Below, in pieces: positions 5,349-62,023 of a DNA stretch of 64,000 nucleotides. The position numbers and the translations under genes were made by a program. The notes below the pieces were generated by a model. That model did not search any database and was not told where the DNA came from. It saw only the letters and a program-made list of their open reading frames with translations. Within the stretch, counting starts at the first letter, position 1; each line of letters begins with the position of its first letter. Source of the DNA: Mustelus asterias (lineage: Eukaryota); NCBI RefSeq assembly GCF_964213995.1, contig NC_135821.1, forward strand, positions 4,774,001 to 4,838,000, in the 5' to 3' direction.

Positions 5349-7371
5349 TCAGTCCCTCTCCCCTAGGGTGAGCCTGTCAAACAGGTACTCTCCCATGCCA
5401 TTCTCAGGGGCTCCCAGTCTCTTCAGGTTGGTGATGTGATCTCCAAGCTTCTTGATCATCTTCACTTGTTCATCCAAGTAGTGAGTCTCCAGGAAGTCAC
5501 ACAGCTGGAAGGAGGAGGAAGGGAAAGTAGTTATATCCACTAACAGATACAAATCCAAGCTCCCCTGGGACTGGAGGATATCAAGTGATACATTTAAAGT
5601 TGGTGGAATTACAGTGTCATTAGAATGATGATTTAAGGACACCACAGCAGCTATTGTCAGAGATCTTTTGATTAGCTTCAGGGACAAGGCTGACCCATTC
5701 CCAAAAGGATTAGTAGCTTACATGAGGGTCGGTGTTCCCAGAGGAGAGTTTGTGCAGATCCAGCAGACTCTGGTTCACATTCTTCTCCAGCTGCAGAGCT
5801 CTCTGCATGGCCTCCAGACCATTGCTCCACTCATCCTGCTCTGGCTTCTGAAAGAGGGGAAGACAGACTGTTTGTTCACAATGGAATCAACAAAATACAA
5901 GGTGTCAAAAGGATACAAATTACTTTCATGGGATGGGTGTCACTGGCTAGGCCAGCATTTATATCTGGGTGGCAGTGAGAGCTACATCCTGTAGTCCATA
6001 TGGAGGGGCATTATCAATCATACAGAATTTGAATTAAGCAGCATTTCAAATGAAGTTAGCACAAGGGGAAGTCAAGACAAGGTCACTCATTCCATTAAAA
6101 TCCAACCTGGACATCCTCCAGGATGACTCTGCCTCCACGTTTATTCTGGAATTCCATCAGTTTCTCAGCATGTTCCCGTTCCTCATGTGACTGCTCCTTG
6201 AAGAACTCAGCAAAGTGACTCAGGGCAACATCATCCCGGTCGAAGTAACAGAACTGCAGGGAGAATTTAAAGCCAGTTTAAAATCTAACATCTCCCATTG
6301 TTATAGAATCCTACGGTACAGGAGGCCATTCAGCCCATTGAGTCTGCACCAACCACAATCCCACCCAGGTCCTATCCCCATGCATTACCCTACCTAGTTC
6401 CCCTGACACTAAGGGGCAATATATGACCAATCCACCTAACCCACACACCTTTGTTCTGAACTGTTCAAGAATTAATTCTACTGGCTAAATAGCAACATTG
6501 ATTTTGCTTTTAGCATTTGAAAATAGATAATCTTGTTTATGAAACAAGCAGAAAGGTTACACTCTGTCCAAGCATATGGAAACAGAGAATTAAACTGACA
6601 ATAATGGTACAAAGGACATTCAATAAGTCTTTGTCCTCCATCCAGAAAGTGTATAAACACCCAGATACACAAGGGTTTACTGATCCATTCCATTGAGTGA
6701 ATATCAGTCTACATCCTCTTCACAGCTTTGTGCTCATCAGTTCCAAACTCAGGCAGCAGCTGAACTAGTTTCATCCATTAAACCTCTCAAATGGAGAGCA
6801 GCTGTTACAAGGAGCAGCCCATTCACTCAACATCACCCTGGATTACACACTGGAGACACTCAGCCCTCAATGATTCTCTCACCCCCAGGGATGGAAGACA
6901 AGAGAAATAAGTCTTAGTCACAAGTAGGCTGACATTAACACTGCAGTGAAGTTACTGTGAAAATCCCCTAGTCGCCACACTCCAGCACCCATTCGGGTAC
7001 ACTGAGGGAGAATTTAGCATGGCCAATACACCTAACCAGCACATCTTTCAGACTGTAGGAGGAAACCAGAGAACCCAGAAGAAACCCATGCAGACACAGG
7101 GAGAACATGCAGACTCCACACAGACAGTGACCCAAGCCAGGAATCAAACCCAGGTCCCTGGCTCTGTGAGGCAGGAGTACTAACCACTGTGCCATTAATA
7201 TCATTTATAAAGTCACTTCATTCAACTGGAGATGATCCTACATTTCAGGTCAAGGAACACAAAGCTCACCATGGAGAGGTAAACATAGGAGGAATAGAGC
7301 TCCAGGTTGATCTGCTTGTTAATAGCATCCTCACAGTCCTTGTGGTAGTTCTGACACACTTGGGAAGCCAT
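5349..7371 (-). CDS. Ferritin M/heavy-like subunit, gene B (176 aa, intact)
   Basis: Exons 7371-7270, 6253-6107, 5847-5722, 5504-5349, all GT-AG and phase 0; ferroxidase ligands retained (NLEL, HEEREH, LEKN, DEQV); ends LTLGERD*; AATAAA at about 5253-5258. Confidence 0.95.
6915..7196 (-). mobile_element. V-SINE in intron 1 of ferritin B (same insertion as in A and F)
   Basis: Same sequence and flanks as 1120-1397 and 41281-41546. Confidence 0.8.
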
Positions 7372-7391
7372 CTTCACTATTACTGCCACCT

Positions 7392-7510
7392 AGAAAGTTC
7401 TAGAACTGCCCCTTTCTAACACAACTTGTATTTATACCACTGGGCCATCCTGCATTCAAACTGGGAATGACATCACCAATGATGATTGACAATCTTTGAC
7501 AACCAATCAA
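7392..7510 (-). promoter_or_regulatory. Ferritin B promoter/5' UTR: HSE-like triplet, TATA box, CCAAT
   Basis: AGAAAGTTCTAGAAC at 7392-7406; TATAAATA at 7429-7436 on the minus strand. Confidence 0.7.
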
Positions 7511-58942: not shown

Positions 58943-59000
58943 CAAGAGCTTGTGAGAGGGAAGGTCAGCTTGTTGTTGTGTGACTCTTATCCTCGGTGAG

Positions 59001-62000
59001 ATGCCGTCCCAAGTGCGTCAGAACTACCACAAGGACTGTGAGGATGCTGTTAACAAGCAGATCAACCTGGAGCTCTATTCCTCCTATGTTTACCTCTCCA
59101 TGGTGAGCTTTACATTTCTGGGAGTCCTAGTTTCAGTTTAACACAGTGACTGTGTTGCATTGTGAGCAGGTAGAATTTCTCTAGGTTGATGAGTTGGTTT
59201 TAGATATCTCCCTCCCCCAGACTGAATAGAGTCAACACTCCCAACAGGAGCTTGTTCCTGTTTTAGAATTGCTGTGTCCAGTTTGGAGTTTGGCTCGAAA
59301 ACTAACTCCAGGTTTCCCGGCCAAAAGAGAAAATGCTGGAAAATCTCAGGAGGCCAGGCAGCATCTGTAAGGAGAGAAAAGAGCTGATGTTTTGAATCCA
59401 GATGACCCTTTGTCAAAGCTGATGAAATGTTGAGCTTTGACAGTCATCTGGACTCCATATCAGCCCTTTTCTCCTTACTGATGCTGCCAGACCTGAGATT
59501 TTCCAGCATTTTGTCTTTTGGTTTCAGATTCCAGCATCTGCAGTAATTTGCTTTTATCCAGAGTTCCATGAGATTTCCAGTAGAAAGATCATGGATGGGA
59601 TTTAATGTCCTTGCTTGTCCTGAAACTGTAAAATCCTGCTTGAGGCCAATGGACCTTCCCATGCTCTGCCCTTTGCCTGCTCCAATTCCTGTGATGGATG
59701 GGCTGGTAAAATTCTGGCCTACATTTTGGATACATAGACCTCCTTATCTCCTCCCCTTTCCCCTTCTCTCCCCCCCCCCCCAAATTAGAGGGAAGCAATT
59801 AAATGTAATTGGGTGGCTGGTTGGTGAAATATTAGCTAACTAGCTGTACTCAGTTTATCCTTTACCCTCAGTGAGTAAATCCTGATCTGAACTCTTCCCT
59901 ACCTGAAATGTTGCTCAAGTTACTGATTGAAGGATTTTCCCTATCCCATAATTGATATTAGACCATTAGAGTGGGAGTGAAAGTAGAAACTAGAAGCAGG
60001 CCATTCAGCCCTTTGAGCTTGTTCTGCCACTCATTTTTGATCATAGCTGATGATCATAATATCCTGATCCTGCCCCAACTGACATCCTATTAGCTTCAAG
60101 TACTAATTTCTTCAAATCTCTCCATATTTTGGCCTCCTCTTCAATTTTACAAGATCATCAAATTCAATATCCTGATCCCATCTTCCCCACCCTAAACCCC
60201 AAGAGCTATATCTAACTACTTCTTGAAATCACACTGTTTTGGCCTCGATGAGTCTGTGGTAGTGAATTCCACACATTCTCCACTCTGGGTGAAGAAATTT
60301 CTCCTTGCTGCCTTCCTAGAAGGTCTACCCCTTATCTTCAAACTATGACCCCCTAGTTCTGGGCAACACCATTGGCAATTTCTTTCTGAATCTACCCTGT
60401 CTAATCCTGTTGGAATGTTACACATTTGAAATCCTTTTTTTTTCTCTCTCAACTCCAGTGAGTATAATAAATGACTTGGCCTCTCCTTGTATCACTGACC
60501 TGCCATTCCAGGGATCAGTCTGGTAAACCTCTGCTGTACTCCTGCTAATTTCTCCATGTTGATGAAACAATTCAAAAAACATTATTGCTCTTGTGTTTTC
60601 CAGGGATTGACTGTCAACATGATGAGGAAAAACATTATTTGGATTTTGAGGAAATACTCAGTCCCTTAATTAAAGGCCAGCTATTGAGTTCAAAAAGGAT
60701 GAGCTATCGACTGTCAAGCTGCTTTTTTTTTTCTTGGGTCAAACCGACTCTCCCTTGTCTCTCCCTGCAGTTCTGTTCCTTTGACCGGGATGATGTTGCC
60801 CTGAGTCACTTTGCTGAGTTCTTCAAGGAGCAGTCACATGAGGAACGGGAACACGCTGAGAAACTGATAGAATTCCAGAATAAACGTGGCGGCAGACTCA
60901 TCCTGGAGGATGTCAAGGTTGGATCTTTCTCTTGGGAGAATCTTCTAAGATGCAATTTAGATTTCTGAACAAGTTTCTTCTCATTTCTAATGTTGGTGCA
61001 AAGTGAGGATGGGTACATGACAAGTTGGTGTGATGTGGATCTTTAGATCAGCTGATCAAATGATTGGAAGAGGAACTATTTTCTGGTCTATTAACACAGA
61101 CTCTGGTGCTGACACAGGCAACTGGTGGTGAATCTGGGGCAAAGTTATAAACATTGAGTAAATTCCTTTCTGAAGAACTTTAGTTAAAACATCCCCAATT
61201 AGCTGATCTTTGTCCAGAAATGGTCTCCAATGTCATCCCAGTGATTCTAATACTCAGCATGCTGCTCCATGGACTAATTGTCACCATCCACTCCACATGG
61301 AATAATGAAGCTTTTTCCCCTCTTTCAGAAGCCAGAGCAGGATGAGTGGAGCAATGGTCTGGAGGCCATGCAGAGAGCTCTGCAGATGGAGAAGAATGTG
61401 AACCAGAGTCTGCTGGATCTGCACAAACTCTCCTCTGGGAACACCGACCCTCATGTAAGTTGTGTAATGGGTTTTCCACAGTGGTGTTGAGATATTGGAA
61501 TCTACAATTCCCGCTGTGACAGAATTCCATTGCTTTGTGTTTCCCACTTGTGGGTTTGTTCTGCAAAGGTCACCTACACTGAACCTGATCACTAAACAGA
61601 TACATTGAGGCAGCAATGTTTCCTGATCTATTCACTCCCAGTTTAATGGAATTGTGATTTGTCACAATGTGGGTGACTCAGGTTAAATCTACACATTGCC
61701 CATGTAACGTGGCAGAGGTTGGCACTGCCTCATGGGTTTCCTCCCACAGTTCAAAGATGTGGGTTAGGTGGCTTGGCCATGCTAAATTGCCCCTTGGCAT
61801 CCCAAGATGTGCAGATGGTGGAGGAGGGATACTTCATCTGGATAATAGAATTCATTGATCTGTCTTTCCTTTCTAGCTTTTTGACTTCCTGGAGACTCAC
61901 TACTTGGATGAACAAGTGAGGATGATCAAGAAGCTTGGGGATCACATCACCAACCTGAAGAGACTGGGAGCCCCTGAGAATGGCATGGGAGAGTACCTGT

Positions 62001-62023
62001 TTGACAGGCTCACCCTCAACTGA
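59001..62023 (+). CDS. Ferritin M/heavy-like subunit, gene H (173 aa, open frame)
   Basis: Exons 59001-59102, 60771-60917, 61329-61454, 61877-62023; [21 protein letters not shown], ends LTLN*; AATAAA at about 62087. Confidence 0.92.
59321..59556. mobile_element. Inverted-repeat (fold-back) element, probably Penelope-derived, in intron 1 of H
   Basis: Arms CCAAAAGAGAAAATGCTGGAAAATCTCAGG...CCAGATGAC...TGTCAAAGCT / AGCTTTGACA...GTCATCTGG...CCTGAGATTTTCCAGCATTTT; a single arm also occurs at about 29834-29950. Confidence 0.65.

Follow-up and report, generated by a model that had tools for sequence, protein, structure and literature searches.

The exons and core promoters of a ferritin gene array in Mustelus asterias have most probably been held near-identical by DNA-to-DNA interlocus gene conversion, with occasional unequal crossover, while introns and untranslated regions (UTRs) diverged. 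The array comprises 36 four-exon copies over about 283 kb, 18 on each strand in mirror order. The 64,000-nucleotide stretch analysed here (the window; NC_135821.1, 4,774,001–4,838,000) is its centre and holds seven four-exon genes, B–H (5349–62023), plus exon 1 of an eighth, A (Table 1). Across the array 34 genes are complete, with four exons and phase-0 GT–AG introns (one mutated donor, in g28) that measure 116 to 3428 bases and contain many repeats. Two are deletion copies: g27, whose deletion runs from within exon 1 to within exon 3 and is joined at a short word common to both, and g25, in which exon 3 is absent and intron DNA is retained. The broken copies are g19, g25, g28 and g32; g19, gene E of the window, is a pseudogene with a stop at codon 7, a 2-base deletion in exon 4 and a divergent promoter. 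A CpG-rich reverse-transcriptase element lies at 45.5–48.0 kb of the window.

Table 1. Ferritin genes and core promoter blocks in the window
Feature	Position	Strand	Details
Gene A (g15), exon 1	1479..1580	-	exons 2-4 left of window
Ferritin gene B (g16), intact ORF	5349..7371	-	exons 7371-7270, 6253-6107, 5847-5722, 5504-5349
Core promoter block of B, homogenised	7421..7502	-	CCAAT-like boxes; TATA at 7436
Ferritin gene C (g17), intact ORF	11326..15947	-	exons 15947-15846, 12951-12805, 12129-12004, 11475-11326
Core promoter block of C, homogenised	15998..16083	-	TATA at 16013
Ferritin gene D (g18), intact ORF, innermost minus-arm copy	26485..28657	-	exons 28657-28556, 27487-27341, 27057-26932, 26637-26485
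Core promoter block of D, homogenised	28710..28795	-	TATA at 28725
Ferritin pseudogene E (g19), innermost plus-arm copy	32549..36636	+	exons 32549-32650, 34311-34457, 34574-34699, 36489-36636
Core promoter block of F, homogenised	40958..41043	+	TATA at 41028
Ferritin gene F (g20), intact ORF	41096..43915	+	exons 41096-41197, 43053-43199, 43340-43465, 43760-43915
Core promoter block of G, homogenised	52935..53020	+	TATA at 53005
Ferritin gene G (g21), intact ORF, chimera	53071..55647	+	exons 53071-53172, 54367-54513, 54946-55071, 55501-55647
Core promoter block of H, homogenised	58865..58950	+	TATA at 58935
Ferritin gene H (g22), intact ORF	59001..62023	+	exons 59001-59102, 60771-60917, 61329-61454, 61877-62023

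The array genes encode a vertebrate ferritin of H/M type. Exon 2 of gene C matches PF00210 at 44.7 bits (cut-off 24.5); exon 3 scores 22.6 bits, under the cut-off, and exon 4 has no match. The closest solved structures for exon 2 are a ferritin middle subunit (E 8e-22) and then a heavy chain (5e-20), and gene C carries the ferroxidase-centre residues E24, E59, H62, E104 and Q138, which we take to correspond to human H-chain positions 27, 62, 65, 107 and 141. Rfam returned no iron-responsive element (IRE) match in the window (seven genes and exon 1 of A) or at g01 and g02 (L010, L011); an IRE_I match (42 bits) lies about 90–120 bases upstream of the divergent paralogue p3 (L036:5814–5841). The array's function would be to supply a single ferritin subunit without IRE control in bulk, perhaps to the oocyte. 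For the Greenland shark ferritin cluster, expression is reported to be ovary-specific in the passages seen of bioRxiv 10.1101/2024.09.09.611499.

Within the window, exon identity is much as the first-pass annotation described it. Every exon of B–H is 96–100% identical to its gene C counterpart, silent differences amount to 0–6.4% over 21 pairs (first 513 coding bases), and even pseudogene E departs from the majority sequence by 2.5%. Most of exons 2 and 4 are alike, as claimed, the variable parts being bases 2–5 in exon 2 and roughly the final 10 coding bases in exon 4. Introns are largely unalignable, with less than 5% of repeat-masked sequence aligned in 16 of 21 pairs; E and F, and likewise G and H, have introns in common that are about 10% diverged. 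The picture of unrelated introns fails for part of intron 1, common to B, C and F (2–8% divergence). The shared GTTGGA donor of intron 2 is also real, in all seven of B–H and in 32 of the 35 array copies having exon 2. Three neighbouring paralogues (73–75% identical) have GTTAG, so the GTT.G donor is old and does not by itself speak for conversion.

Across the array, divergence at silent sites is uncoupled from that of introns. Mean pairwise difference is 0.0375 at silent and 0.019 at replacement sites (595 pairs, 35 genes). Among 561 pairs of 34 genes, silent divergence is 0.040 in the 331 pairs with less than 5% alignable intron and 0.034 in the 63 pairs with more than 50%, whose introns are 10.7% diverged; after repeat masking, the introns that do align show about three times the divergence of silent sites. 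(Copy g27 was left out of all pairwise counts and g25 also of the donor/flank identity profile, the intron comparison, site linkage, tract lists and arm-order tests; pairwise rates exclude coding bases after 513 and allele counts exclude bases 103–111.) Silent changes make up 34 of 104 variant alleles versus 28.5% expected under neutrality (p=0.38). Exon and intron similarity are weakly tied (Mantel r -0.20, p 0.052 for silent and -0.23, p 0.032 for replacement sites), and exon distance shows no relation to physical distance (Mantel r 0.057, p 0.35). GC-biased conversion is unsupported: GC3 is 0.665 versus 0.63–0.72 in unhomogenised paralogues, and shared variants show no weak-to-strong excess (12 weak-to-strong versus 14 strong-to-weak). 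Raised GC from biased conversion is common and not required.

Conversion was assessed by four-gamete counts, permutation tests and tract lists. The exons form a patchwork of alleles incongruent with the history of their flanks. All four gametes occur in 111 of 153 pairs of shared sites, and in 16 of 28 pairs when only eight interior non-CpG sites are used; some shared alleles sit at CpG sites and may be recurrent. No clear link to any flanking non-coding segment is seen at 17 of 18 shared sites (z at most 2.1). Site 438 is the exception, following intron 2 (z 5.5), which together with the weak exon–intron tie indicates incomplete homogenisation. Introns preserve the mirror order between arms (rho 0.97, with 15 of the 16 genes of the right arm scored), an order missing from the exons (rho 0.05, 16 genes). 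Gene G is a chimera that switches at exon 2: its upstream DNA and intron 1 are of the g12–g14 type, its introns 2–3 and 3′ flank of the g22–g24 type. Genes g12 and g21, on opposite arms, are 96.7% identical over a shared 2193 bases, of which 1.5 kb lies upstream and 591 bases in intron 1. Intron types switch at exons, and near-identical tracts of up to 2.2 kb enter intron and upstream DNA.

Homogenisation extends to a promoter block lying before the likely start site, a site that we placed using TATA and the 5′ terminus of retrocopy L045. This block is 91% identical over 34 genes versus 70% from TATA+15 to the ATG. The 5′ and 3′ UTRs are not homogenised: the 5′ UTRs form three main families, and past the stop only 26% of pairs exceed the shuffled maximum. 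The core promoter and the long tracts leave the earlier view that conversion is confined to exons unsupported.

Silent site 288 is C in 30 of 34 array copies and A in all six dispersed copies; it is also A in 1988 of 2001 depth units of organism C and in about 2.48 of 2.50 million depth units of organism F. At site 378, 25 of 35 array copies have G and all five dispersed copies covering it have T; the case for a silent sweep rests on these two sites. Silent sites 226, 228 and 252 are invariant in the array and different in essentially all depth of organism B. These few sites point to lineage-specific states common to old paralogues. The small number of exon differences between organisms would fit slow shark rates and may leave room for silent-site constraint. 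Contigs of run X19 (organism C) cover the gene B exons at 80% likeness, and the introns left uncovered are uninformative.

Retrocopy L045 has a 3′ UTR that matches g02 alone (three substitutions and one gap in about 111 bases), yet over the coding part g02 (15 differences) is no nearer to it than other copies are (9–27). Over 411 bases, a contig of organism D and L045 show 15 differences, several of which only L045 has. On other contigs, copies that retain introns show no homogenisation. One of them, L042, departs from the majority at nine of about 104 silent sites and has intron divergence from its own family of mostly 8–12%, so no uncoupling is seen there. Dispersed copies are undercounted, since the genome searches scored the best 40 of 83 and best 40 of 52 candidates, and three further exon-1 matches (C6, C7, C11) fall outside this comparison. 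Taken together, the uncoupling, neutral-like exon variants shuffled against introns and a lineage-specific silent allele argue for concerted evolution by the short-tract gene conversion that had been proposed.

A cDNA template was raised as possible in that proposal: reverse-transcribed ferritin mRNA would recombine with genomic copies and overwrite exons only. At least four processed copies with joined exons (L041, L044, L045, L046) show that germ-line cDNA is made, those found being inserted elsewhere; a reverse-transcriptase element lies nearby, and in some runs that are presumably RNA the depth of spliced contigs is very high. Among the runs listed as containing the sequence, none is recorded as RNA. 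Identity also falls within about 7–9 bases of the donors, a sharp edge that the cDNA model predicts too. The idea is nonetheless very unlikely and was rejected on five tests. UTRs, which are in the mRNA, are not homogenised and the promoter, likely outside it, is, the opposite of the prediction. None of 102 introns is lost in the 34 complete genes, the deletions in g27 and g25 do not join splice junctions, and intron-bearing copies elsewhere were left unhomogenised. Between sites 366 and 378, which lie on either side of a junction at a distance of 12 bases, r2 is 0.00, and the cross-junction average is 0.035, though over only four pairs. Intron chimeras, moreover, require DNA exchange.

Birth-and-death evolution would dispense with most exchange, invoking strong selection on replacement and silent sites (codon use, mRNA structure, splicing). 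Exons that differ little between organisms, high expression suggested by contig depth in runs guessed to be RNA, and the weak exon–intron link speak for it. We consider it improbable: the variant spectrum is neutral-like, and the broken copies (0.4–2.6%) are as close to the majority sequence as intact ones (0.6–3.1%). Shared alleles are scattered over unrelated intron backgrounds, one silent allele has supplanted another in most copies, and fixed silent differences at sites 226, 228, 252 and 288 are species-specific, although compared without synteny. That the copies are instead young duplicates, about 4% diverged, with introns rapidly replaced by repeats or indels is harder still to believe. 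The introns are indeed repeat-rich and of very uneven length, and some tracts are recent, but more than half of all pairs share almost no intron sequence even after repeat masking, what does align is more diverged than silent sites, and the intron families run in a mirror order that suggests an inverted duplication long ago. Shark ferritin clusters, to which the array is likened by gene type and arrangement, are dated at no less than 250 million years in the passages seen of 10.1101/2024.09.09.611499. The chance that one consensus exon was polished into many places of the assembly is negligible. Near-identical exons can attract mismapped reads, but no two genes are identical (lowest replacement difference 0.0024), and in runs X16 and X19 depth is far greater at exon positions than in introns. 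Contigs of X16, which may be the assembly's own sample, also match gene B at 0 differences, both over intron 3 plus part of exon 3 and over most of intron 2.

How DNA-to-DNA conversion came to act on islands can be sketched. Selection on protein, splice sites and promoter would first have kept the islands similar enough for strand exchange; introns would meanwhile have drifted, gained repeats and ceased exchange except within families of close relatives. Conversion would then drag silent sites and pseudogene exons along. Proximity would matter, copies relocated to other chromosomes dropping out. Islands of 100–150 bases are short for ectopic exchange. More tentatively, and with somewhat less than even confidence, we suggest an old inverted duplication of about 283 kb whose 36 genes stay uniform through five islands, of 85–150 bases each, exchanged between copies with unshared flanks and across arms, with sweeps dated by retrocopies and orphan copies. 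If so, the array would offer a natural setting, in a vertebrate, in which to measure how little homology is enough to sustain steady interlocus conversion, and ferritin copy number in sharks would reflect dosage of one homogenised IRE-less oocyte protein, not lineage-specific adaptive duplications. Longevity and ferroptosis have been connected with ferritin expansions in sharks. Old copies kept alike by conversion would look young and species-specific in coding trees and dS dates, and copy-level selection tests would mislead.

Shark ferritin clusters are published for Greenland and white shark (bioRxiv 10.1101/2024.09.09.611499) and as FTH1b tandem clusters (PMC13214024). In the parts seen, these resemble the array as large tandem clusters of mostly full-length four-exon ferritin genes in a cartilaginous-fish-type genome; the array differs in its 36 copies and two mirror arms, and its FTH1b likeness is one of gene type and arrangement only. 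The words 'gene conversion', 'concerted' and 'intron' are absent from the main text of PMC13214024 as seen, and the viewed passages of the preprint do not discuss homogenisation. No report of conversion in such clusters came out of an incomplete literature search that left supplements aside. Another fish, the hadal snailfish, has a tandemly amplified ferritin heavy-like gene, fthl27, with 14 copies against three in a related snailfish and homogenisation unmentioned in the passages seen (PMC10746142). In BMP8A/B, DDX19A/B and TUBG1/2, neighbouring paralogues with mosaic concerted evolution by gene conversion, one pair of them inverted, the tracts described span exons and introns with raised GC (PMC2720389, seen in part); in the array most introns are excluded and GC3 is not raised. 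A parallel in concerted coding regions with abrupt edges and unconverted flanks is mammalian KRTAP1, for which the passages seen of bioRxiv 10.1101/282418 likewise reject reverse transcription because UTRs do not follow, and propose short-tract conversion plus selection. KRTAP1 consists of four single-exon genes; the array has 36 copies with five islands per gene of about 85–150 bases, promoter and four exons, the core promoter being homogenised too. Both the conversion process and its coding-only form in KRTAP1 are already known, and the array is a good example of an ordinary kind: a clean instance, in genes with introns, of conversion restricted to short conserved islands, and one whose built-in controls (retrocopies, orphan copies, unconverted neighbours) separate DNA from cDNA templates.

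The window carries seven four-exon genes (B–H) plus exon 1 of an eighth, as judged by self-comparison and exon mapping. A profile search gives exon 2 a Pfam Ferritin match above cut-off, with middle-subunit and heavy-chain ferritins as its closest solved structures, and the B–H product is a ferritin subunit. Own-genome searches and 40 adjacent stretches place these genes in an array of 36 near-identical copies (g01–g36, numbered along the contig)—18 minus copies, then 18 plus copies, turning between D (g18) and E (g19). All four exons are present in 34 of the 36. On either side of the D/E junction the intron families run in mirror order (rho 0.97, 15 genes), which suggests an old inverted duplication (arms of about 140 kb each); mirror order is absent from the exons (rho 0.05).

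Features of the ferritin array and its surroundings (L-numbers are fetched genome stretches)
Feature	Location	Strand	Remark
Array, 36 copies	about −111.7 kb to +171.2 kb, window coordinates; G000:C21 about 4,662,000–4,945,000	−, then +	
D/E junction	window about 28.7–32.5 kb		
g19 (E)		+	stops
g32		+	stops
g28		+	donor broken
g25		+	without exon 3
g27	L026 region, window offset +91,621	+	deletion joining the interiors of exons 1 and 3 at short shared word; exon 2 and two introns gone
Divergent paralogues, at least three	+181 to +220 kb; L033–L036, L039 (window offset +181 to +252 kb)		adjoin array
IRE of paralogue p3	L036:5814–5841		
Full-length processed copy of g02 transcript	L045:2695–3360		apparent target-site duplication flanks; inside palindromic repeat
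Intron-bearing orphan copies	L042, L043 (G000:C11, C22)		intron family of g08–g11/g22–g25
CpG-rich non-LTR-type retroelement	window 45509–48027	+	weak RVT_1 match
Retroelement 3′ ends	1713, 7503, 16080 (−) and +137073, window-offset coordinates		
tRNA-like match, 54.6 bits	L011:3412–3485	−	within array; may be repeat or pseudogene
U2-like match, 49.1 bits	L035:8774–8953	+	among paralogues; may be repeat or pseudogene

Silent sites differ by a mean of 0.0375 across 595 pairs of copies, replacement sites by 0.019. With repeats masked, 331 of 561 pairs share less than 5% of their introns; silent sites of those same pairs differ by just 4.0%, bearing out the first-pass annotation's description of homogenized exons amid unrelated introns. 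Nor is dS comparable to intron divergence: in the 63 pairs sharing over half of their introns, introns are 10.7% diverged and silent sites 3.4%. Copies with similar introns tend only weakly to have similar exons (Mantel r about −0.2, p 0.03–0.05). Ungapped identity stays near 99% as far as most exon edges, falling to background level within about 7–9 bases of each donor. Variable coding patches (exon 2 bases 2–5, last codons of exon 4) either lie at edges that escape conversion or reflect genuine variety among subunits. The only strongly variable patches are coding bases 104–110 (exon 2 start) and the exon 4 end, corresponding to residues 35–37 and to C-terminal tails that give 173–176 residues.

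Copy-by-copy selection does not explain this homogeneity. Silent changes make up 34 of 104 variant alleles, against 28.5% predicted for neutral change under the mutation spectrum seen here (p 0.38), and broken copies lie at the same distance from the majority sequence as intact ones. Alleles are shuffled among copies: four gametes occur in 111 of 153 pairs of shared sites (16 of 28 when only interior non-CpG sites are counted), and just 1 of 18 shared sites clearly tracks a flanking segment.

Of six dispersed copies retrieved, four are processed and two retain introns. Silent site 288 is C in 30 of 34 array copies and A in all six dispersed copies; site 378 is G in 25 of 35 and T in all five dispersed copies covering it. 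In contigs from sequencing runs (organisms B, C, E and F, distinct from the genes so lettered), A accounts for about 99% of depth at site 288 in organisms C and F, against 20% and 7% in two organism E runs; organism E matches the window introns. Silent sites 226, 228 and 252 are invariant in the array; organism B differs there in essentially all contig depth (among the 40 of 57 differences listed). This evidence for sweeps comprises few sites, taken from contigs rather than reads. Between-organism differences are few overall, possibly because rates are slow (for a gene set compared across a pair of shark species, the available part of PMC13214024 gives Ks 0.02–0.37), and there may be some silent-site constraint. 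The L045 retrocopy has the 3′ UTR of g02 alone, with a coding part no nearer g02 than other copies; this fits overwriting of the g02 exons, or a g02 allele made likewise. L042 and L043 have in common four alleles that few or no array copies carry, and a second exon-1 match lies 2.6 kb ahead of that of L042.

The homogenization had been ascribed to short-tract conversion confined to exons, possibly cDNA-templated. Shuffled alleles and sweeps uphold conversion; confinement to exons fails, as an upstream block some 85 bases long, containing a TATA box and CCAAT-like boxes, is 91% identical in the 34 genes aligned, and tracts of at least 95% identity often take in non-exonic DNA (the longest 2,193 bases, g12 versus g21, on opposite arms). 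Retrocopies, a local reverse-transcriptase element and sharp identity edges would suit a cDNA template, but none of 102 introns has been lost. The TATA box lies 62–76 bases before the ATG (34 genes) and the L045 retrocopy starts about 35 bases before it; thus the homogenized promoter block is probably untranscribed, whereas the post-stop region is not homogenized. From TATA+15 to the ATG, mean identity is 70%, with three main families. Further counting against cDNA, intron family switches at an exon in several genes (most clearly G), and intron-bearing copies on other contigs are about as diverged at silent sites as in their introns. GC bias was not seen. The promoter/UTR pattern, intron retention, non-exonic tracts, intron-family switches and unhomogenized copies elsewhere point to DNA–DNA exchange, limited by homology and proximity and not by splice junctions; we reject cDNA-templated conversion.

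Short 3′ pieces of the retroelement end 132–133 bases before the ATG of g15, g16, g17 and g33, at the promoter CCAAT-like box, and the element's tail repeats a word similar to that at the box; either site-specific insertion or spread via conversion would place them there. The paralogues beyond the array are only 73–75% identical; they are not homogenized, at 66–71% mutual identity. An IRE is present in one of them (p3), and none was found in the array genes scanned. Distant paralogues carry a GTTAG donor, so the GTTGGA donor of the array is ancestral in kind.

We infer that selection acting on the protein, the splice sites and the promoter would have held five short islands per gene alike enough for pairing, while introns and UTRs drifted beyond the pairing limit except in families of recent relatives, within which longer tracts and unequal crossovers may persist. 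Conversion among 36 neighbours would keep silent sites, and pseudogene exons too, close to a single consensus, occasionally spreading a new allele across the array. The array probably pays off by supplying one subunit in large amounts outside IRE control; the accessible text on Greenland shark describes ovary-specific expression of a ferritin cluster (10.1101/2024.09.09.611499).

Homogenization of the ferritin array is real, and conversion as its probable cause is well supported. Shark ferritin clusters are already published, as the available portions of two reports show (10.1101/2024.09.09.611499; PMC13214024); a literature search, incomplete in coverage and excluding supplements, turned up no report of conversion among shark ferritins. 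Long-term mosaic conversion is described for three mammalian gene pairs in the accessible part of PMC2720389. In the portion available for KRTAP1 (10.1101/282418), concerted evolution is limited to coding sequence and reverse transcription is rejected by the same UTR argument as in the ferritin array. To these systems the window adds tests against cDNA, a homogenized promoter, a mirror architecture and sweeps dated by dispersed copies.
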